64,000 nt of DNA from Saccostrea echinata (taxonomy: Eukaryota): assembly GCF_033153115.1 (NCBI RefSeq), contig NW_026889764.1, positions 11,904,001 to 11,968,000 of the forward strand, written 5' to 3'. The translations under genes and the position numbers were made by a program. Below are positions 13,249 to 64,000 of the stretch, piece after piece; position 1 is the first letter of the stretch; each line of letters begins with the position of its first letter. The notes under the pieces are model-generated. The model was given only the letters and a program-made list of their open reading frames with translations. It did not search any database and had not been told where the DNA came from.

Positions 13249-16200
13249 CTACTGGTTTTCAACGTCGTCAATCTCTATTCCATTGTTGTCGACTGCAGCA
13301 ATTAAATTTCTTGTCTCTGTCGCAGACACCTGTAAAATATATAGATAATAGTTTGAAATGTGAAGATAACGAAAAGTGATCATAGTCAAAAGTTCAATTA
13401 AACAATACAAATTGTGATTAGAGCAAACATGGTCCACCGAAAAAAAGAAGTGGAGTTGTGGTATTAGGTGCCATGGAGGAGTGAGCAGGCCCTGTCGACC
13501 AGTCACACCCTCCGAGTGGTCCCTTGTCATGATCGGGTGAACAGAAAAGTCTCATTTCAGTGTGAAAATTAGTGGCCTAACAAATTGTATAAATTTCAGC
13601 CTTATGATAGCTAAAAATACAAACAATGGCATTGTATCGACCATAAAATTTGCGATATGATGAGTTTAAACGAGATTGTTGATACCCTGTATCATCAACC
13701 TATTTGGCAGTTGCCTGACTCGTTTAAAAAAATGTTCGTACATAGAAAATGCTCTTGCGTATCGAAACACATGGTATACATCAACCCCATATGAAGGTGA
13801 TAATGGTATATTGATACATAAATAAAGTAGACGATGAAAAAGTTGATGTCATCACGTTTACCATAAAGTTTATAGTTGTTAGTTTGCCATCAGTGACTTT
13901 CTGTAGTAAAACATCCAAGTTTGAAACAGATGTGTCAGACTGTGGTGTCTTTAATTTAGAGTTTGATTGGATATATCGAATTATCACAGGAATGAAAATG
14001 AATATTGCTAATTGATAATACGTCGATGAAAAATCTAAATTGCGAAAATCGAAGGTCAGCAGCAAGAGAATTCTTCTTTTCATGTAGATTCTGCTTCAGA
14101 AGAATACAAAAAAGCCTGCTGAAATAAAATTGATAGTTTGTAATTTTTTTTTTATTTTACTTTGAATATTACCTACCTTCCCAAAACCAGCACAGTCTCG
14201 AAATAAACAGCGAGGTAATCCTTGAAAACAACATATTAAGTAGAATAACAAAGTACATGAAACACCAATAAAACCAAAAGTGCTTAAATCAACAGCAGAG
14301 GGTGTGTTATTGATGTTCTCGCAAACAAAGTACGTATTTATCTCACTAATAAACGTATGTGATGGACAATTTTGATAGCAAGTGTTTTCATATATGTAAA
14401 ATTTTTTACCGAAAAGGCACATAGAATGGCTGATACATTTATTCAGATAATTCACATACGTATCTGGACACACTGAGTAACAAACGGTTCCATTAAGACT
14501 TTCGTTTCTTAATCCATATGGCTTTGTGCTAGTGCAATTGTTAACACATGTGCCATCTACGATAACCATGTTCTGAGGACACCAGCGGACACATTTTCTT
14601 CCGTTACTGAAATAGGATATCGGGCATTTTGTTGTACATCGATAACCATACATTGGATCTAGAGTGACAAAATAAGAATTAGGACACTTTTCAACTTTTG
14701 AACACACATTATCTATCACAATATGTGTTTTCATGGGACATTTTTGAATGCATTCTTTTGTATTTTCCAACAAAACTGTTTCTTTTGGACAACTTTCCGA
14801 ATAGATACATACTTTGCCAACATCAGACACTATATAAAAAGAAGTGTTTTTGCTACAGTTTGAACTACAAATTCCGTTTTCAACATGAAATAGGTCTTCA
14901 GGGCATTTTCCGTCACAAATATTTCTATTTAGTACATGGCCTTCTGAACATTTTCCAACACAAGTTCTGTTGTGTTTATATAAAAAGGGAAATGATCCAT
15001 AGCATTGTTCTACACATGTAGATAAATAGTGCACCAAATCTGCAGGACATTGACTGTAGCAGGTATCATTATAGAGAAATTCATTTTCTTCACAATATTC
15101 AACACACGAAAATGTTTTATTGTCTTTTACAGACATTATACTTTTGTAAGGATGAGATTCGGGACATTGTGAAAGACAGGTGTAGTTAAATAAGGAAAAG
15201 TTTTTCGGACATTCTACAATACAATGGCTTATGTTGTTCAAGGATAGAACATATTTTTCAGCAGGGCAACGGGAAAGGCATTGCTGATGATAAATAGATG
15301 ATTTCAAAGCTGGATTTGCATTTATATATGGTCGAAGAATATCACACTTTTCGACACATTCCTTCTTTACACTATCAAGATAAGTATTGTTTGGACATAC
15401 AGAAACACAGACATTTTTAAAAGATGCCATGTTGGACTGACATTTTGTGGTGCAGACCCATATCCTGTTGAAGGAAGATGTTTTGAGATACATAAGTGGG
15501 CTTGTTGTTGGGCATTCCTTTGTACAACTTCTATTGAAAAGCAAAGGAAGCCCATGTGGACACACCGTATCGCAGGAATATCCGTTAACTGCTGTAAAGT
15601 CTGGACATTCCCTTAAGCAATGTTTAATATCACGAGAATGGAAGACAAATGGATGGGAGTTTGGACAGGTTACCGAACAAGACTTTTTCCCAGAGTAACA
15701 CACACCATCACAAGAATAGGCTGTCATATATGGGGCTTCGTCTGGACAATGCATTAGACATGTTTTGTTAAAATCAACCGTATATTCGGGACAGTAATTT
15801 AGACAATATCCATTAAAACAGTACAGGAGTTGCTGATTACACATAGCTTTAAGGCATTCTAAGTTTCTGTTGGGGCTATTTATACAATATTTTATGAATC
15901 CATTGTCCTGTTTGAATGTCAAAATTGGGCAGTTGTCGAAACATTTTTCTTGAAAAACATACTGATTTCCTGGACATGTTTCTTTGCAAAAGGTTTTTGA
16001 AACGAAGTGTGTTTTAGAATTATATATCCGTGTTGTAACAGTCACTTCTGTTGGCAAGCAGTTTGTTTTAAGAACCTGAAAAGGAGCATAAATGAAATCT
16101 TAATTAAAACATAACAAATTTAGCATGAAAATTTTGAAATACATATTTAAGAAACAAATAATCTCATTTTAAATAATTATGAGTTTACAATGTAAATAAT

Positions 16201-53476: not shown

Positions 53477-54748
53477 AATACTGACATAGAAATAACAAAT
53501 GTACAACAAGTATTGCCCATTGGACTAGTTATGGCAAAAAAGATGGGACTAATCCTTATAAAAAACGCAAACAAACATTATAAAAACACATAACATGCTT
53601 GTACAAATGAATGGGACTAGAGTAAATGTATAAAACTTGATCAATTGTATTTCAAAAATATATTTAGCCTAAGACACCAAGTACAAATGCAAAAACAGGT
53701 GGAAGATAAGGTGATGGAGGTGGGTAAAAGTTTCTACACATTCAAACAATGGCTACAGCTTCAATAAACAAATATCACGTGATCAATATGGCGGTAAAGT
53801 ACAGAACCGTAATGGAAAGATTTTTGTTATTCCGGAAAAAATTGACAATGTAATCGAGATGCTATAAATTACTTTATGTTTTCACATAAATACAATTATA
53901 CCATCCTCTTCTAATATAATAGAGGTACCTTTTTAGCCATGAGTCTACTCTGCTCTGTTTTTTGCCCAGCAGATAACATAACACCGAGTTTGTCGAAAAA
54001 GAGCATTTATTATTGAAAATGCCAAAAATGTTTCCCAATCTTAGAAGTACATATGATACTCGTAAAAATTCTAAGGCACAAAATAGGACAGTAAATCTCA
54101 TGTAAAATATATCTCATTACATGTACACAAAGATAAATGTGCCTAAGATATACACCGTACAAATACTGACATAGAAATAACAAATGTACAATAAGTATTG
54201 CCCATTGGACTAGTTATGGCAAAAAAGATGGGACTAATCCTTATAAAAAACGCCATGAACTTGTTGTCAAATTGGCAACAAGTGGCCCATCCAGAGGAGA
54301 CGAATGGGAAGAAAGGTAATCAAGTCCCACAGAGTAACATATGTACTTTCCAAACAGGAAATATGCTATCATTGAATAAGAACTACTTATTCATGTTTGT
54401 TTACATCTATTCTATAACAAATGTGCACAATTAACATGATTAAACCCACAACTCTGTTTGAATTTGATCACAAGTTTCGAAAAACAAATCAACATGTATT
54501 TTTGGAAGTATATATACCACAGTTATGTAAAATTAGGAAGCACCAAGTCAGCTATATATACATATCACACTCATATCTAAAATGAAAACCCAAACATTAA
54601 AAAATAAGAGTTTTCTATTATAGCTTCTTTAACCATGACCTACAATAATCTACAAGAAATATCTTGTGCATATAATTACATGTCATTAAACAAACATGAC
54701 TAGGGTTTAATACTTAAAATCAAAAACAATAAAAAACTTGTTATATTC

Positions 54749-54999
54749 ACAAATGCCGCCTCAGACAGTCATTTGCAAACATGTAATGTTACCTAGAAGT
54801 CATAGTTAAATTTAAAAAACTATCAAACTTGACGTAATCACAAATGCCGCCTCAGACAGTCATTTGTAAACATGTAATGTTAAAAAACTATGAGTACTGG
54901 GTAATGGCCACCTTGAAAAATTGCTCACCTAGCAGCTGCCTCAGACAGTCTGACTAGAGAATACAACATTATTTCATAATCAGCTGCCTCAGACAGTCC
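54749..54999 (-). repeat. Four copies of a GACTGTCTGAGGC(G/A)GC hairpin motif downstream of YR
   Basis: GCCTCAGACAGTC on the + strand at ~54759, 54849, 54938, 54986. Confidence 0.8.
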
Positions 55000-55057: not shown

Positions 55058-55975
55058 TCAAACAAGATTAAGAGGTGAAATTTCCACTGTATCAAAAACT
55101 GGTATCCTAAAATATCGCCTAATAGCACTGGAGTTCCAGCGACCCATTAAACGAATTTTATCCTCGGGAATTTTGCACTGAAAAGCATAAGACGCTGCTC
55201 CTATACGAAAACTATGTGATTTGTACTTAGTTGTGTCAAGACCAACAAATGATAATGCATTTTTTAGTTCATTTGTAAAGTAAGCCTGATTAATTGGTTT
55301 TTGACCATCAAAACTGAATAAAGGGCCCTGACATTTACTTCTGACTGATAAGTACTTTTGCATAGCTTTTACTGGACATATATTTTTACAAGTCTGAGCT
55401 GCTATTTGCAAGGACACAGGTCTACCTGAGTCATGATGTTTGAAATGTCTGAGTGTTAATGTCATAGATTTAGGTCTTCCTCGTACTGGGTCAAATGATA
55501 AATTTTTTAGATGAACAAGATTTCTACTTGAATTTTTTAAAGATTTCACAGTTACTTCACCTACTCTCAGGAATGCAAAGAAACAGAGTGTAAACATGGC
55601 TGTCAGAAGGCGTCTGCTAAACTTTCCAGCCACTGTGTGTTTAAGCGCATGGACTAGCTTGAAAAGAATATGAGGTGTTATTGGTAAACGGATATCTGGA
55701 GCATTGGATAAGTGCTGAGCTCCTTTGAGAAGCTTCTTGATGACAAAAAACTGAGTTGGGTCAGAGAGACCATGTATTTTGTGATAATAAGAAATACCTG
55801 CCACATAGGTATTTATTGTGTTGTAAGATTTTTTATGTTGATATAACCATGCTATAAAAGACATAATGTGATTTAACTGAGATGGAAATGTTGGACTTGT
55901 ACTGAAATTTGCCCGGAAGAATTTATGATAAGCATTTAAAGCTACCTCATATGACACCTGGGTATTTTTTGACAT
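55058..55975 (-). CDS. Tyrosine recombinase of the Ngaro element
   Basis: N-terminal SAM-like region (TINTYVAGISYYHK), catalytic FLRVGE, HSFRIGAAS, GRWNSSAIRRY. The frame is open upstream into the end of pol. Confidence 0.95.
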   Translation of the reverse strand: MSKNTQVSYEVALNAYHKFFRANFSTSPTFPSQLNHIMSFIAWLYQHKKSYNTINTYVAGISYYHKIHGLSDPTQFFVIKKLLKGAQHLSNAPDIRLPITPHILFKLVHALKHTVAGKFSRRLLTAMFTLCFFAFLRVGEVTVKSLKNSSRNLVHLKNLSFDPVRGRPKSMTLTLRHFKHHDSGRPVSLQIAAQTCKNICPVKAMQKYLSVRSKCQGPLFSFDGQKPINQAYFTNELKNALSFVGLDTTKYKSHSFRIGAASYAFQCKIPEDKIRLMGRWNSSAIRRYFRIPVFDTVEISPLNLV

Positions 55976-56007: not shown

Positions 56008-57957
56008 CTAAATGTGTAGGTACTCCTGAGGGATGTTGGCTGGGAACTTGTCCATGTAAGGTGCTAATTCCTTGAATTTCTCTACCTGCAAACGCGAAAG
56101 TAAGTCTGGTAAAACATTTTTCTTCCCAGGAATATGCTCGGATTTGAACAGAATATTAAATCTCAAGCAAGCTAGAACCAATCGTCTGACTAATGACATC
56201 ACTGATGGATCTTTCGAAGAAAGTCTATTAATAATGTTGACTACTGCCATATTATCTGAATGAAACAATATAGAACAGTTAGCCAAGGTTTCTCCCCAGA
56301 TTTCAATGGAAACCACGATTGGGAAAAGTTCCTTGAATGTAATATTGTGATCTTGAAGGTTTATGTTCTCCCAGCTTCCAAAAAACCATTTTTTACCTAA
56401 GATAGCCCCATAACCTAAGCTTCCCGCTGCATCAGTATACAAATGAAGTTTTTGGGAATTTTGCCATCTGTCGTCCAGAAAGATTGACTTGCCATTAAAG
56501 TTGTCTATGAAAGTTTCCCAAGCTAACAAATCCAACCTTGCTTGCTTATTCAGACGAATCCTATGATGAGGCTTTTTTATACCTACTGTTAAATTAATAA
56601 GACGACGCAGAAATGCACGTCCAGGTACAACAACACAGCAAGCAAAATTTAACAGCCCAATCAAGGACTGAATTTCACGAAGTTTCATCTTTTTGCGATT
56701 TTTTGCTAGCTTAACTGCCTCACGGATTTTTTGGACTTTATCTTGGGGTAATCTAGCTTCCCACCTAACTGTATCTAGTTGTACTCCTAGGAAAACAATA
56801 TCTGTAGAAGGGCCCTCTGTTTTTTCTGATTTAATTGGAACCCCCAACACCTCACATAAAGATATAAATTGTTGTAATGCTAAACCACATATTGTAGAGT
56901 CCCGGGGTCCTATAAATAAGAAATCATCCAATATATGCAACATGTTAGGGACTCCAAACTTGTTGCAAGCTATCCACTGCAATGCTGTACTGAAAGTTTC
57001 AAAAATGGAGCAGGATATTGAGCAACCCATGGGAAGACATTTATCAAAATAAAATTTATTTTGAAACTGAATACCTAGTAACTCATGGTCAAGTGGGTGG
57101 ACAGGTATTATACGAAAAGCAGAAGCAATGTCAGTTTTTGCAAGAAGGCACCCAGGACCAATCTGCTTTATTAATCTGATTGCGTCATCGATTGTTGTGT
57201 AGGAAACGGAACATAATTTGTCTGGTATAAAATCATTTATTGAATGCCCATCAGGAAATGACAAATGCTGAATCATTCGAAATTCGTTAGCTTCTTTTTT
57301 GGGCACCAGACCTATTGGTGAACACTGAATATTAATAAAAGGAGGTTCCTCAAATGGGCCAGCTATTCTACCAAGTGAAATCTCTTTGTTTAATTTTTCT
57401 AATGTTATATTTGGAAGAGTTTTGGCTGATAACAAATTGGAAGAAAAACGTGGTTGTCTTGGACCCTCATAACCTAATCTAAATCCCTTTTCAAAACCTT
57501 CATATAAAAATTCTTTCAAATTTTGATGATAGCCTTCTAATAGCTGTTTTAAAATAGTTATGCGTACTGGAGTAACAACAGAACTATTTGTTTGCAGTGG
57601 TGGCTGATGAGAATGAACTTGATGGGTAGCTTGGGGAGCTGTTGTTTGGGGCTGACTGATTACCTCTTGGGCATTGAAGGGCTGAGTGGTTTTTCTTACA
57701 CTGGTAACATGTGTGTTTATATTGACAGTTGTTCTGGTAGCATTTCCCATTTCTGTGAAATGCATAGCAGAATCCAGGTGGTGTTTTCCTACCTTTCTGG
57801 GGCCCCCCTCTTCTTTGAAAATTGTGTTTGGTACGAAAATTGGTTTGGAAATTATGATGAAAATTTCTAGATGTGGTGGCCATAACCCAATATTCATAAT
57901 GCAACTGGCCCCAAGGGATAGACCTTGCCTCAATGTCCTTACGAACTTGTTTATCAT
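56008..57957 (-). CDS. pol: Reverse transcriptase/RNase H of the Ngaro element
   Basis: SPIGLVPKK, FRMIQHLS, KTDIASAFR, LPMG, HILDDFL, FLGV, RNase H LYTDAAG..KELFPI..SDNMAVV..DLLSR. The conserved part starts near 57590 and overlaps gag, so the true start is uncertain. Confidence 0.95.
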   Translation of the reverse strand: MINKFVRTLRQGLSLGASCIMNIGLWPPHLEIFIIISKPIFVPNTIFKEEGGPRKVGKHHLDSAMHFTEMGNATRTTVNINTHVTSVRKTTQPFNAQEVISQPQTTAPQATHQVHSHQPPLQTNSSVVTPVRITILKQLLEGYHQNLKEFLYEGFEKGFRLGYEGPRQPRFSSNLLSAKTLPNITLEKLNKEISLGRIAGPFEEPPFINIQCSPIGLVPKKEANEFRMIQHLSFPDGHSINDFIPDKLCSVSYTTIDDAIRLIKQIGPGCLLAKTDIASAFRIIPVHPLDHELLGIQFQNKFYFDKCLPMGCSISCSIFETFSTALQWIACNKFGVPNMLHILDDFLFIGPRDSTICGLALQQFISLCEVLGVPIKSEKTEGPSTDIVFLGVQLDTVRWEARLPQDKVQKIREAVKLAKNRKKMKLREIQSLIGLLNFACCVVVPGRAFLRRLINLTVGIKKPHHRIRLNKQARLDLLAWETFIDNFNGKSIFLDDRWQNSQKLHLYTDAAGSLGYGAILGKKWFFGSWENINLQDHNITFKELFPIVVSIEIWGETLANCSILFHSDNMAVVNIINRLSSKDPSVMSLVRRLVLACLRFNILFKSEHIPGKKNVLPDLLSRLQVEKFKELAPYMDKFPANIPQEYLHI

Positions 57958-58687
57958 ACGTCAGCCATGATAAACCTGCATGTCTATTAGCCAACTCTCT
58001 GACAATTTCTCCATGTTTAATAACTGATGCAACTTGCTTTGGAAATTTTTCTGAATAAATTGCCAAAAATTTTAGAAAAGCTGATGTCCATTGATCTATG
58101 GATTTGATGAGAGTTTTTGACTTGGTTGAAAGTAATTTTAATTCAGAATTGCCTGTACTTTTAAGTTGAACAGACCTGTCTGAGGCAATATCTTCCCTTG
58201 GCAAAAGTTTACTAAAGTCAATATATTTATTTTGCCAGATTTTGTTTTTGATTTTTGTTTCAACCTGTGCTGATATTGGCGTTGACAGCAAATAGTTGTC
58301 ATCATTATCAGACTCAGCTGATGAGGAGTCATCAGTACTCGTATTTTCATCTGAGGAATTTTCATCACCTGAAGAGTCAATCAAATCTGAGTTAGTACCT
58401 GCAATGGAAGGTGATCTAGGAGGTGAAGATATTCTTTTTCTCTTTTTCTTTGGCTCTCTGTGCTTTTTCCTTCCCCTATCCTCAGTTTCTACCATCTGTT
58501 GGGACTCCTGATTGGATTCATTTCTGATCGCTTCTAGGACCTTGTCCGTTACTGCTGCCACCAGCTGGTCCTGTGCGGTCTGTTGCACAGTCTGTTGTGC
58601 AGCCTGCTCTGCAGACCCTGCTGCTGCTGGAATGACCTGAGTTCGCCTCCCTCTTTGTTGGCGTTTGGCACTTTTGGGTTCGCTCAT
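57584..58687 (-). CDS. gag: Gag-like ORF1 of the Ngaro element
   Basis: KIWQNKYIDFSKLL, SIDQWTSAF, WLTYDKQVR; C-terminal CYAFH..C....C.YKHTCYQC...H....C zinc fingers. The ATG is directly preceded by TTTTACAG. Confidence 0.9.
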   Translation of the reverse strand: MSEPKSAKRQQRGRRTQVIPAAAGSAEQAAQQTVQQTAQDQLVAAVTDKVLEAIRNESNQESQQMVETEDRGRKKHREPKKKRKRISSPPRSPSIAGTNSDLIDSSGDENSSDENTSTDDSSSAESDNDDNYLLSTPISAQVETKIKNKIWQNKYIDFSKLLPREDIASDRSVQLKSTGNSELKLLSTKSKTLIKSIDQWTSAFLKFLAIYSEKFPKQVASVIKHGEIVRELANRHAGLSWLTYDKQVRKDIEARSIPWGQLHYEYWVMATTSRNFHHNFQTNFRTKHNFQRRGGPQKGRKTPPGFCYAFHRNGKCYQNNCQYKHTCYQCKKNHSALQCPRGNQSAPNNSSPSYPSSSFSSATTANK

Positions 58688-59110
58688 CTGTAAAATTGTT
58701 TATCAAAATGATATAAATGAAATATATTTTATTCTTAACCACAGCTCTGGTCAATGAATAAGGCTTCAGTACTAATACTGTAATACTGGTACATGGACTT
58801 AATATCAAACACAATTATTGTACCACAACAAATTCATTGACTATGTAAAAACATAGCTTTTTTGTGGAAATTATCATACATATTTGGTTAATTAACAGCT
58901 TTCAACTGATAATATAAGCATGTATGTAAATTCATTTAGAAATACCATTATACCAGTGTGGACTTGAGCATAATAAGTCAAATCTGAATTTTTAATACAT
59001 GTCAATCAACATGGTAAAATTATTGACTCTCACAATGGACTTGAGTAAAAGATACTTATAACAAACATTTATGAACAGGAATGCCATATTTATAAGAACT
59101 TAAACATGCC

Positions 59111-60311
59111 CACCAACCATATAGGTGCATAGAACTTCTGTCACCTTTATCAATGGCCATGTGTTCCCCAACCATATAGGGGTATATAATTTTCATCACA
59201 AATTACACCTGATAAGGATTAAGGCCCCAACCATATAGGAGCCCAACAATATATATATAAACATATTGCCACTTAAACATCAGCATTCCTTGTGATTACA
59301 CAATCTTAGTCACCTATGGTCTAATTACACGTCCAATTAGATGTAACAAGCCCACTTGAACCACCAATTTATGATAAACATATGTAATTACATCAAAGAA
59401 ACCCCAACCATATAGGGGCATGAATATACACAGAAAGCCCCAACCATATAGGGGCATATTAATAAACCTGTAACCATAACTAGGAAACACAGCATATCCT
59501 TTATTGCATAACGCACATATTCATTAACTTTATCCAAAGCTAAAAGACATGTGTTTGTCTATAGAGCACATTTTAATAAATCCCCAACCATATAGGGGCA
59601 CAATCATAAACCTGTAATCAAAATTAGGAAACAAAGCATAACCCCCAAAATGAATATTACTGCACTTCTATAGAGAACCGAAAGATGGTGCCCCAACCAT
59701 ATAGGGGAATACCCCAACCATATAGGGGCAAATTTAACTAAACCCACACCATACGTATATAGGCATAATAATAATCTATGATCATAATAAGAAAGACAGC
59801 ATGATCATAAATGCAATGTGTAATATCTTCTATTCAGTGCTAAAAAACACGTCCCAACCGTATAGGGACAAGTTTCAATAAGGCAGGTGTAAAAAGCACA
59901 AAAACATGAAAACTGGTGAGGGAGGGGGATAAAAAATACAAACTCCAACCAAGTAGGGTACCCTTGAAAAACCCCAACCATATAGGGGTCAAATAATAAA
60001 GTGTTCATATCCAAAAAGCAAACAACAGGCAGATAGTGTAATTAATAAATCTTATATATCTTTATATATAACTAATTATCCCCAACCATATAGGGGAATA
60101 ATCACAGAACTCATATCCCAGCAGAGAAAATACACCTAATATAGGGATATGATAATATAAAAGCACTGAATAATATATAAATTAAGCAAACATATTCTAA
60201 TCAATAAATTGTTGATTAGAAAACAAAAACCCCAACCATATAGGGGTAAATTCCTTTTTTAAATAGCCATGAATAATAAAAACTGTTGTTTACCCCAACC
60301 ATATATAGGGG
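59111..60311 (-). repeat. Dispersed array of 14 17-nt hairpins (CCCCAACCATATAGGGG on +) with variable spacers
   Basis: Exact copies at 59166, 59402, 59438, 59582, 59691, 59712, 59972, 60080, 60230; variants at 59111, 59225, 59852, 59943, 60293. Confidence 0.92.
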
Positions 60312-60519
60312 AACAACAATTCCAAAGTTATGTGCCTCGACCATAAAGAGACAACATTTTAAACTTTGTAATAAACAGTTGAGTAAGGCTTATTATTTTG
60401 TTTACAATTCACTTGAACAAAGACTTAGCTCTGCCTTTGACATATCTTGAAACCAAGTGTAAAACATAGGCCCAGTGGCAGTGACAAAAATGTTTTGCCA
60501 TGTGTAGTTAACTATCCTC

Positions 60520-61161
60520 CTATATTTTCAAACAAAATTCATACCCACCATTTGTTATGGTTTTAAGTGTAGAAACTACTACTGCTCGCAAATTATTATA
60601 ATACTTCTTCATTCCTTGCAAATTCAGGTGTACACCATCTTGAGAAAACACCATGTCCTGACTTGCAGAGGACCAGAAACCTGATAAGCGGAAAAATTTT
60701 GATCCTTCCACATTACATAAATAGGATGATATTCTCATATTAAGTTCATCCACTCTTTCATTGAACCACTGAGTATCCACTTCATAACGTATGCGGTAAC
60801 TGGGGGGTCTTCTGTGTAAAGTTTGTAGAATTACAACATGTTTCACTGATTCTGCATAACGAAGGGATATAACAAAGTCAATCAATTGTTTGAAGACATC
60901 TGATACTGATTTAGTAGGATCACAGAGGTCATTTGATACGGCTTGCAATACCACCACATCTGGATGAAACAGCCTTACGTAACGCAGACCTTGCGCCCTA
61001 ACCTTTGACAATGTCGCTCCCCGAAATCCTGCATATGAAACATGAATTTCCTCCAAACTTAAGTTCAAATTTTTTGTCACACGGTTATCAGGAGAACTAT
61101 TCACAAAGTCTTCCAATCTACTGACAAATGAATGTCCTAAAACTACAAGTTTCATAACCAT
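60520..61161 (-). CDS. SGNH/GDSL hydrolase-family protein carried by the Ngaro element, 213 aa
   Basis: Block I VVLGHSF, block II RGAT, block III VVVLQAVSNDL, block V DGVHLN. Confidence 0.9.
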   Translation of the reverse strand: MVMKLVVLGHSFVSRLEDFVNSSPDNRVTKNLNLSLEEIHVSYAGFRGATLSKVRAQGLRYVRLFHPDVVVLQAVSNDLCDPTKSVSDVFKQLIDFVISLRYAESVKHVVILQTLHRRPPSYRIRYEVDTQWFNERVDELNMRISSYLCNVEGSKFFRLSGFWSSASQDMVFSQDGVHLNLQGMKKYYNNLRAVVVSTLKTITNGGYEFCLKI

Positions 61162-61514
61162 GATGGCGAGTTACGTAATCGGATGTAAACCGCCACAAAC
61201 TCTTTTACATTATATAAAATTAAGGAGAATGTACTTACGATGCACCGTCAAACACTAGCAATGAAACATGTGTCTTGCATGAGAATATATGGACACAAAC
61301 GCAAGGAAAATATCAAACAAATGTAAAAGTTTCTACACATTCAAACAATGGCTACAGCTTCAATAAACAAATATCACGTGATCAATATGGCGGTAAAGTA
61401 CAGAACCGTAATGGAAAGATTTTTGTTATTCCGGAAAAAATTGACAATGTAATCGAGATGCTATAAATTACTTTATGTTTTCACATAAATACAAATATTT
61501 TCAAAGGTTTTAAG

Positions 61515-64000
61515 ATGAAAATAAAGGGTACAAGGAAGCTTACATTGCCTTTGGTGGTAATAAGTTTTGGGTTTTGGATTTCTGCCATACTCACACCGAG
61601 CTGGGTTTCCTGGTCCGTTTACTATCCATTACCAAACAAACCTGAAAAGGTACAAGTACAAATGTAATTCTGTTTGTCGTCTTCGTTAAATATTAGATGA
61701 AATAAATGGTGTTAATTAATGGAATTGATTTCTTGTCGTACATTTTGATTTCAACAGCATCACATGTGCATCCCTATGCCAATAGAAACAATATCTATAA
61801 TTACAACGGTATTATAACATTTTGGTATAAAGGTTACAATGAATAACTATGAATAACATGAGGTCTATTGGTCACATCGCTCAGTTGAGCACTTAGAGAT
61901 CACAGAAATCAGTTCAGAATTGAAGAGTTAAAAAATTATTATAAATGACTCCACCTACTCCCAAGGTCGAAGGTGGAAACAAACTTGCTTCCATATTGAT
62001 AAGACTAACCATGGCTTTGTTCTTCCTGAGAGGAAGATTTTTATGATCTTTTTCCTACATCTTCCCATGTAAAACTTTCATCGCCTAATATGGCCCCACC
62101 CTACCCCAGAAGGTCAACATTTGAACAAACTTTAATCTACACTACAATACCAGAGAATGCTTCTGAATCATTATGAATAAAAATGGTTCTGTTGTTTTAA
62201 AAGAAGATTTAAAGATATTTCCTACATCTTCCTTTGTATAATTTTGATCCCCACTCGTGAACAAATTTGAATCTACACTACCTGAGGATGCCTATGTATT
62301 ATTTTGACGATTCGTGGCTTTGCAATTCTTTTTTCCAACCTCTTTCTATAAAAAACTTATATTCCCTGTCGTGGCCACCCTACACCTTGGGGTCATGATT
62401 TGAACAAACTTGAATCTACACCACCTGAAGTTTTTTCTATATCAATAGGACTATACATGGCTTTGTTGGTCATGAGAATTTTCCTATGCATAAGTTGGAT
62501 TCCCTATTGTGCCCCCCCCCCCCCACCGGCCGGGTCATTATTTGAAAAAAAATGAATCTACACTTCCTGCGAATGCCTCTTAATTATTTAGACTAGTCTT
62601 GACTTTGCTGGTCATGAGAAAATGAGCTTTGCTATTCCTGAGAAGATTTGTAAAAATTTCCCATATATTCCTGTGTTTAACTTTATTCCTCCATATCCTC
62701 TGTTGTGGCCCACTCTACCTCGGGGTTCATGATTTGAACAAAGTTGAATCTACACTTTGTAATGACGCTTTCAAGTATGTTTCATCTTTTCTGGTTCAGT
62801 AGTTTTTGAGAAGATTTTTAAAATATGCCAATAAATTTACACTACGCAGGTAGGTTAAGGCTTCCCGTAGAATATGACAGTGCACTCTGTGCCTTCACAT
62901 CTCTGAACTACCAAAATATGACGTCATAATGGAAAATGACGTCAGGTCACTGCAAACTTGAGGTGTTATGACGGGGAGAGTGTCATGAACTTCACACTTT
63001 ATTTCAAACTGCATGTAAAATGCTAGATAGCCATTGCAAAATTCACGGGTCGTTAAAGGTTTTTTAAGTCTTATATGTCCGAATATTTTAAAAATACACC
63101 ACTTACCTACCCTTGATTGAAATTCATCATGTTCAAAATGATTATGAAAAATATACTTTTGAAATGTACTCTGTTTTATACCCGTGGTTGGAGGTAGAAT
63201 TTATTTTGTGTGTATAAAATTGTCTGGCGCAGGTGATTAATGAGGATTAATCTGATAATTTTTGTGGAAATCTGTAAGAAGAGGTTGCGCTCTAACTGAA
63301 TCTTGCTTGGGAAAATGTGTGTTGGCTTTGTTTTAATACAGATTACGATATTGTATGGAAAATACCCTAAAATTTGTAGGTAAGTTGAATTTCTCAGGAT
63401 ATATTTTGTACCCAAGTAATACTATGACTTTTCCCAAGCACATTTCGGATACACAAGGATACGATGAGCTTATTTATATAACAAAATGTTAATAATTATT
63501 GTGTTAATCAGCTGCGCCGAAGCGATTTATATGAAACACTTCCAAAAATTATAAATGACCGTCACGTGATCAACAAAGTCATGTGATATCATAACAAATA
63601 TGCTAATATATAACCGGGGAAACCCTTTATATAAATTGGAAGTACTAAAGTTCAATACTTGTAAATTAAAACCAAAACCGACCTCGCAATGACATATTAT
63701 GTTTTGAGCGCATTTTAAAGCTTCGGGAAGCCTTAACATAGCTGCGTAATTCTTAATTAACCCCCTTTGAAAGAGGGCGCGGCCATTCCTGTGAACAAAC
63801 TTGAACCACCTCACTTGAGCCAATTGCTCAGGTGTGCTAAAATTTAAAGGCTGAGGGTAAAAATCCCACTCCAATTCAGTGCATTTCAAGGAATATTTCC
63901 TACGTTTACATTAAACATTTTCCCTTCACCTTTCAGGAGATGATGATATGGGAATCAACACTGAATCACACATTGCTACACTATTATAATATATTCTTCA
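61515..64000 (+). CDS. Claudin-like four-TM paralog of the 6797-8333 gene (5' part; continues beyond the window)
   Basis: Exon 61515-61649 MKIKGTRKLTLPLVVISFGFWISAILTPSW..PNKPEK|GT (135 nt, same length as in the paralog). Exon from 63937 EMMIWESTLNHTLLHYYNIFF matches EQMMWNNTILHYYKYF. Confidence 0.8.
61855..62840 (+). mobile_element. Helentron-type element with ~5-6 Cg170-like satellite monomers (intronic)
   Basis: End motif ACATGAGGTCTATTGGTCACATCGCTCAGTTGAG; repeated TGAACAAACTTGAATCTACACTACCTGAGGATGC. Confidence 0.8.

Follow-up and report, generated by a model that had tools for sequence, protein, structure and literature searches.

A hydrolase-bearing leader intron spliced to the gag start codon in an Ngaro-type retrotransposon of the oyster Saccostrea echinata

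Structure of the element

We analyzed a 64,000-nucleotide (nt) stretch of the Saccostrea echinata genome (assembly GCF_033153115.1, contig NW_026889764.1, positions 11,904,001 to 11,968,000 of the forward strand), hereafter the window, which carries on its minus strand an 8,022-nt (8.0-kb) Ngaro-type tyrosine-recombinase retrotransposon extending from 61498 to about 53477. All element coordinates below are window positions on the minus strand. Four open reading frames (ORFs) follow one another from 5′ to 3′: an SGNH/GDSL hydrolase, a gag-like protein, a reverse transcriptase with RNase H (RT/RNase H) and a tyrosine recombinase (YR). The hydrolase ORF (60520..61161; 213 amino acids (aa) in the unspliced frame) matched Pfam Lipase_GDSL_2 (E = 1.6e-8) and keeps its GHSF and DGVH motifs intact. 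The gag-like ORF (57584..58687; 367 aa) was identified by its position and zinc-finger motif, and its last 374 nt are overlapped in another frame by the RT/RNase H ORF (56008..57957; 649 aa; RVT_1, E = 4.9e-11). The YR ORF (55058..55975; 305 aa) gave a weak, sub-cut-off match to Phage_int_SAM, and its HSFR and W..Y motifs were read in the translation.

The element is bounded by split direct repeats in the order A1 ... B1-A2-B2, namely A1 (61323..61498; 176 nt), B1 (53900..54253; about 354 nt, a length taken from solo A-B copies), A2 (53724..53899; 99% identical to A1) and B2 (53477..53568), which is incomplete at its 3′ end in this copy. Similarity among close copies starts at A1, and complete repeat sets were found in relatives such as L095, L099 and L100. 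This repeat plan is the defining trait of Ngaro elements (PMC9210276). A Pfam scan of the four ORFs found no methyltransferase domain, the criterion that separates Ngaro-like from DIRS-like and PAT-like elements. We assigned the element to Ngaro on the repeats together with the methyltransferase result of the Pfam scan.

A long leader intron is spliced to the gag start codon

The initial annotation, made from the letters of the window, had placed the hydrolase ORF and a hairpin array inside a 2.55-kb leader intron ending at the gag ATG. Its donor (ATC/GTAAGT, G at 61238; motif at 61233..61238) and its acceptor (AATTTTACAG/ATG, ATG at 58687; 58688..58700), in which CAG abuts the start codon, are both present, and GTAAGT occurs only once in the 8,022-nt element. 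The hydrolase ORF (61161-60520) and the array (59110-60310) both lie between them. Exon 1 (61239..61498) consists of A1 plus 84 nt and has five full genomic matches, each followed by SGNH sequence.

We then examined contigs of sequencing runs, the RNA nature of which was guessed; six runs were listed, five held part of the stretch, and four of these (X1-X4; three samples from two studies) were analyzed. The results revealed the join 61239>58687, with GT..AG ends and 2,551 nt skipped (58688..61238), in X1, X2 and X3 but not in X4. The splicing of the 2.55-kb intron, as originally predicted, is thus borne out in three of four probable RNA runs, and the first long ORF of the resulting RNA is gag. 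The same acceptor is also joined to a second donor within the hydrolase ORF, as described below. No joins into RT or YR were found in the four runs, whose contigs of 2.9-3.5 kb are colinear there. Contigs covering intron sequence were present as well (58794-60254 in X1, shorter ones in X2 and X4) and may represent unspliced RNA, excised intron or DNA. Stretches without contig cover, such as 58696-60399 in X3 or RT/YR in X1, were given no evidential weight.

Several features of these data count against the splicing scheme: the join 61239>58687 has short sides of only 30 letters, missing a 31-letter bridging rule by one, and the evidence for splicing consists of assembled contigs from runs guessed to be RNA. 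The last point would also suit an origin of the joined contigs from DNA, in which the animals that were sequenced would carry copies of a processed or deleted kind. A 22-nt probe across the join 61239>58687, however, had no match in the genome, and the first 208 nt of gag had three genomic matches, all with the intron end upstream. No copy in the assembly could yield either join as DNA. The exact GT..AG ends, the use of one acceptor by two joins, their recovery in two studies and the conservation of the signals in 21 families likewise make an origin from DNA highly improbable. We are thus confident of a scheme in which two splices joined to one acceptor give three RNA forms.

Three smaller observations concern these contigs and exon 1. 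Contigs of both studies end within A1, where they start at 61311-61350, and just before B2 (53588-53597), which is a weak hint that these positions mark transcript ends. An upstream ATG in exon 1 opens a frame (61340-61248) in phase with gag, with its stop preceding donor 1. One X1 contig joins the acceptor at 58687 to a third upstream sequence that has no match in the genome, possibly a host exon spliced into a copy of the element.

A second splice provides a hydrolase mRNA

The second donor (AATG/GTGGGT at 60548; motif at 60543..60548) lies after nt 613 of the SGNH ORF, in phase 1, and was joined to 58687 in all four runs. The join 60549>58687 has GT..AG ends and skips 1,861 nt (58688..60548), and one X4 contig carries 188 letters on its short side. 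The position and phase 1 of this donor are the same in the window and in two subfamilies (L035 and L038) with 55-64% identical SGNH sequences. This splice swaps the last residues of the hydrolase for the +1 frame of gag, giving a product of 260 aa in the window; the corresponding product of the L035 subfamily has 206 aa and terminates with NDE.

Protein databases contain the same product. The RefSeq protein P0001 is identical to locus L036 over 204 of 204 residues and terminates with DE, where the genomic frame would continue as GGYMFVQHLYLV (GGYMFV...); the donor-2 product is thus seen independently, as the splice predicts. P0002, from a second Saccostrea species, has a C-terminal end like that of P0001. 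Among proteins from Logan contigs, eight records end in NDEPQWER and seven in NDEFQWER; gene models can invent joins, which contig-derived proteins cannot. Protein clusters 4 and 5 include both spliced ends and NGG (unspliced) ends, and cluster 6 includes NGG ends only. P0042 runs from SGNH directly into the gag N-terminus. Two gene models, P0026 and P0044, in which other joins fuse SGNH to gag in frame, were excluded from the counts. In total, 986 representative SGNH matches were found at E ≤ 0.001, and no sequence match to a solved structure was found at E < 0.05. Homologues of the hydrolase that bear names belong to Saccostrea, Magallana and Crassostrea oysters.

The hydrolase therefore has a hairpin-free spliced mRNA. 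This contradicts the original proposal of a single intron with the hydrolase made only from intron-retaining RNA. The first join does exist, and NGG-ended proteins do occur, so that unspliced RNA may also encode the hydrolase; the second join in four of four runs and the spliced-end RefSeq and Logan proteins in other subfamilies and species nevertheless leave the one-intron scheme very little room. As a point against the scheme, donor 2 is clear in the window's own clade only; a loose pattern written post hoc matched 9 of 19 families, and donor 2 as a clade-wide site is not supported.

The end of the spliced hydrolase differs between subfamilies. In the subfamily of L035 (3169-3176) and L036 (2721-2728), its stop occupies +5 to +7 relative to the gag ATG (ATGAATGA), an arrangement that could permit reinitiation, and in the window's family the spliced hydrolase overlaps gag by 56 codons.

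Splice signals are conserved across families

The genome yielded 150 matches to SGNH and 113 to gag, from which 60 stretches were taken by hand and 21 distinct SGNH-Ngaro families (gag ≤57% identical) were kept. Extra copies of the same families, L134, L136 and L138 (gag start broken or ambiguous) and three SGNH-less families were left out. The gag start was defined as the first ATG with at least three K/R in 15 residues, the threshold having earlier been four.

In 20 of the 21 families a YAG ends no more than 12 nt from the gag ATG, compared to 1,431 of 4,534 other ATGs (0.32) and 6 of 21 SGNH ATGs. This plain rule is the least tuned of the three acceptor rules, two others having been devised afterwards; a stricter, U-rich rule written post hoc held in 18 of 21 families against a background of about 0.10. 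The 260 nt preceding the SGNH ATG contained GTRAGT in 10 of 21 families (background 43 of 599 windows). The splice signals predicted in the window are thus conserved in related elements, in 20 of 21 families at the acceptor and 10 of 21 at the donor.

The SGNH ORF precedes gag in the window, in all 21 families and in three metagenome contigs. The latter are the three of five metagenome loci that extend to gag; in two of them the gag ATG is preceded by CAG at distances of 0 and 5 nt, and for the third the gag start is ambiguous. In these relatives (L156, L157 and L159), CAGATATGTATA comes shortly past the stop of SGNH and may correspond to donor 2. In an RT tree built from families of this genome alone (midpoint root; L038 excluded), 20 SGNH families formed one group against the three SGNH-less ones (support 100/99).

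The intron carries an array of small stem-loops

Between the hydrolase ORF and the acceptor lies an array of 13 irregularly spaced units (59110..60310), each with a 4-6 bp stem and a 9-nt loop, UAUAYGGUU (TATAYGGTT in DNA), and with spacers unrelated to each other. The whole array falls inside both introns, and both spliced RNAs lack the hairpins. As the initial annotation had reasoned, the hairpins are therefore limited to intron-retaining RNA, or to the excised intron. An exact hairpin 17-mer had 71 matches in the genome, compared to 0 for a reversed control; the matches map to 22 places, each of them within sequence derived from Ngaro, and all have the sense orientation. Two single 17-mer matches in viral contigs were rejected, no element proteins being present there.

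Covariation was assessed on 43 distinct units from five families, chosen by loop alone; a fuzzy loop anchor was dropped because its noise matches inflate covariation. Pairing was observed in 86% of stem cells, compared to 70.6% after shuffling and 26-63% in slid registers, and two-sided changes in 31 cells, compared to 10.2 in shuffles. Three of five covariation measures lay beyond all shuffles and above the slid controls. G-U pairs exceeded C-A pairs by 16 to 7 (P = 0.047; 10 loci), which weakly favours the sense RNA as the strand that folds.

At least four hairpins with the same loop were found in 13 of 21 introns, whereas coding controls had at most two and shuffles at most three; in L047, L095 and L098 the loop picked by this rule differs from the folded loop. 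The loops differ between families, examples in RNA letters being UAUAUGGUU, CAGUAU and GGACCAUA. Among distant families, the loops were CAGTAT in L097 (15 copies) and, on different stems, in L100 (four copies), AGAGTA in L143 (10 copies), GGACCATA in L151 (nine copies) and TTTAC in L145 (six copies), and the loop GYTA of L144 occurs on four unrelated stems. Rfam gave no family above its gathering scores, with three chance-level matches. These comparisons, made on sequence, indicate that the array is very probably a set of selected RNA stem-loops.

Genomic copies retain the intron

We searched 90 loci, of which 60 matched a family's acceptor probe, representing 43 distinct places. The intron end was kept at all 43; 22 of these were not probe sources, and eight were found by gag alone. 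The search for copies precisely lacking the intron, which the initial annotation had proposed, thus found none at the 43 places. In DIRS-1, by contrast, an engineered intron was spliced and lost upon retrotransposition, and the RT works in trans (PMC7192593). Spliced RNA can thus serve as a template in the order, and the retention of the intron in the Ngaro clade needs explaining.

One family has only ORF remnants. Its eight loci (L081-L087 and L090) have different flanks and lengths of about 7.3-7.6 kb, and A1 and A2 are 99-100% identical in the four loci with both ends. This non-coding family is recently active. Its hairpin units number 19-39, compared to 9-13 in related coding elements, a natural experiment that also points towards selection of the unspliced RNA. 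The family no longer has motifs for donor 2 or the gag acceptor; a loss of all donors was ruled out by GTAAGT in five of six readable copies. Besides the expanded 40-nt hairpin array, a second repeat array lies near L084 6360-7560.

L049, L050 and similar SGNH matches, considered as a non-autonomous Ngaro family, were rejected as such. They are 2 kb of Ngaro sequence, a fragment with a broken SGNH and an array, that corresponds to L040 1032-2991, not to the exact intron, and sits within a larger repeat showing 99% identity over 9.9 kb. The window's family also occurs as solo A-B units (L109, L112, L113, L115 and L116); such units have been described for Cafeteria Ngaros too (PMC8547959).

A working model for the choice of RNA

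In the model that we propose, one start in A1 gives three RNA forms among which the labour would be divided. Splicing from donor 1 to the gag acceptor, the join of which was seen, removes the hydrolase and the array and would provide the gag mRNA, with RT and YR probably reached after gag by frameshifting, leaky scanning or reinitiation. Splicing from donor 2 to the same acceptor, also seen as a join, removes the array and would provide the hydrolase mRNA. The unspliced RNA alone carries the array and, because all copies seen keep the intron, would be the template of new copies. The loops would then be putative binding sites for the zinc-finger Gag, which would choose the unspliced RNA for a ribonucleoprotein (RNP) that copies it and might also protect it from splicing.

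The Gag of the window has a basic N-terminus, a predicted coiled coil, a helical core and CCCH plus CCHC-like zinc fingers, and this zinc-finger motif occurs in 13 of 21 families. It gave no Pfam family, no sequence match in the Protein Data Bank (PDB) and no fold match; for a capsid fold, Foldseek found no match at E ≤ 0.001 and the best Z was 5.5, with a model whose predicted local distance difference test score (pLDDT) was 70. As the predicted fold has no capsid match, the copying complex may be an RNP rather than a particle.

On balance, we lean slightly towards the hairpins being a selection tag read by an element-encoded protein. Because loops differ between families, such a reader appears to fit better than one host factor. 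A bolder version reverses retroviral logic, in that gag needs splicing and the genomic RNA would be marked by a family-specific, multi-copy stem-loop code read by the cognate zinc-finger Gag; we put this forward tentatively and hold it to be the less probable form. If it were true, families in one genome would discriminate their own RNA, and extra copies of the tag would be the means by which non-coding parasites compete.

The nearest rival, which is compatible with the hairpins also being a tag, holds that they control splicing or nuclear export, in the manner of a Rev response element (RRE) or constitutive transport element (CTE), or through a feedback switch with a block of the acceptor by Gag or a host protein, with copy selection residing elsewhere, for example in the terminal repeats. 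The array does lie within the part common to both introns, some unspliced RNA must escape splicing, and contigs over the intron are present in X1, X2 and X4. The non-coding family, however, keeps and expands its array without a need for regulated splicing, and family-specific loops would disfavour a single host export factor. We therefore consider control of splicing or export rather unlikely as the sole role of the hairpins.

A number of observations weigh against the tag. Its support is comparative; related families have loops in common through descent, the hairpin units are themselves related by descent, and the tree shows no co-evolution. Two of the five covariation measures fell within the shuffles (pairs changed on both sides, 245/500; additional pair types, 105/500). 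Eight of 21 families failed the array rule, including L048 and L099 with several near-identical copies, and also L148, in which five GGACCATA units were overlooked by the rule; none of the three metagenome relatives has an array. A 361-nt piece of the array was no more stable in folding than its shuffles (z = -0.62), with the own hairpin in the minimum free energy structure for one of five units and cross-pairing, and several arrays (L035, L084 and L095) are plain tandem repeats, able to expand neutrally. The non-coding family is a single event that still keeps its GTAAGT donor, and solo A-B units without the array exist. The loci were mostly found via SGNH, which biases against donor-1 processed copies, and with small copy numbers and best-scoring candidates only, rare intronless copies could be missed.

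Part of this would suit an explanation with no tag at all, in which copying would extend to spliced RNAs, the intronless copies being dead ends or too infrequent to be seen, and the arrays would be neutral minisatellites or enhancer or insulator sites acting at the DNA level. The Su(Hw) repeats in the 5′ untranslated region (UTR) of gypsy are a precedent for such sites. The families failing the array rule, the tandem periodicity in L035 and L084, the z value of the array piece and the copying of spliced RNA by DIRS-1 (PMC7192593) all point this way. In the window, however, the units are dispersed among unrelated spacers with only stem and loop conserved, and two-sided changes, the G-U bias and one loop on unrelated stems are seen across families. 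Moreover, no intronless copy was found at 43 places, though other kinds of dead copies are common. A neutral or DNA-level array thus appears improbable, and less likely than control of splicing or export.

Comparison with known systems

The closest published arrangement is that of the Xenopus Ngaro DIRS-53_XT (PMC9210276), which shares the A1 ... B1-A2-B2 repeats, gag, RT/RNase H, YR and an extra SGNH ORF, and in which, as in other Ngaro-like elements and in the window, no methyltransferase is found. The amphibian hydrolase follows YR, whereas that of the window lies 5′ of gag within the intron. Its function in Ngaro is described as unproven, and the terms intron, splic- and hairpin do not occur in that paper (PMC9210276). 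Dictyostelium DIRS-1 is likewise a YR retrotransposon with overlapping ORFs, its proteins act in trans and its primer is unknown; unlike the window element, it has inverted repeats along with an internal complementary region (ICR), with no natural intron in the description (PMC7192593).

Copia and Evade resemble the present system in some respects. The Copia elements BARE1 and BARE2 resemble the present system in making Gag from a spliced RNA, in separating RNA pools for translation and copying, and in having a parasitic subfamily that uses the helper's particles (PMC3735527). They differ in their long terminal repeats (LTRs) and integrase, in a subgenomic RNA for Gag only and in pools distinguished by cap and poly(A), and a leader intron with an accessory gene and a hairpin array is a feature of the window element but not of BARE1/BARE2 as described (PMC3735527). 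Retroviral psi, RRE and CTE signals (PMC5035971, PMC4588558) form another related system. Signals of this kind occur only in unspliced RNA and tell the genome from spliced mRNAs. The window element differs in that gag needs the splice, the candidate signal consists of 4-15 dispersed copies of one small hairpin, and its Gag, unlike retroviral Gag, has no capsid fold match. In retroviruses, the unspliced RNA doubles as the gag mRNA and accessory genes are spliced.

Catalytically intact accessory SGNH esterases upstream of pol are known from the ORF1 proteins of CR1/L2/RTEX elements (PMC3905857), and SGNH esterases occur in bdelloid LTR and Penelope elements, ORF3 of the LTR elements being typically expressed from spliced messages (PMC5408684). 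Unlike these esterases of long interspersed nuclear elements (LINEs) and bdelloid elements, the window SGNH is a separate ORF with its own splice form. Natural splicing, a 5′ SGNH ORF or a hairpin array in DIRS/Ngaro was not found in the literature searched, which did not include key reviews; PMC9341512, PMC4157794, PMC3783388, PMC5718144, PMC10294476 and PMC13465315 gave nothing relevant.

A few fungal YR elements have been reported to contain introns, and the presence of an intron alone may therefore not be a novelty for the order. The Ngaro clade described here combines a hydrolase-bearing leader intron with alternative splices that share an acceptor at the gag ATG and with stem-loop arrays that differ by family and, among the RNA forms, are kept by the unspliced RNA only. 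Two natural splices supported by junctions and a defined hydrolase mRNA are thereby gained for Ngaro. That an intron should outlast reverse transcription throughout an entire clade is unusual for a retroelement. The 21 families in one genome, with and without arrays, together with the non-coding derivative provide a comparative set, and the small, repeated, family-specific RNA element has stems and loops open to mutation and swapping.

Other features of the element and the window

Two further genomic copies of the element are 96-100% identical to it, depending on the region. Both carry insertions (L031 5973-7941; L032 after 8748), one in RT and one between A2 and B2. In the window copy, B2 breaks off at about 92-97 of its roughly 354 nt, and a 40-nt second copy of the 5′ flank comes next (53437-53477 = 61495-61535); insertion by a recombinase is not expected to give long flank duplications. 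The 3′ UTR holds four short repeats (54758..54996), present in all RNA forms; they are four copies of GACTGTCTGAGGC(A/G)GC, for which a small hairpin is possible by eye.

Outside the element, diverged repeats of 140-190 nt lie upstream of A1 (61980-62840) and a 21/42-nt tandem repeat lies beyond B2 (52400-52700). A stretch of N (42165-42334) is distant from the element. Elsewhere, the window contains a 582-aa cysteine-rich ORF with furin-like repeats by eye (14096-15844, minus strand) and a 252-aa ORF with a resemblance by eye to a TIR domain (39765-40523, plus strand).

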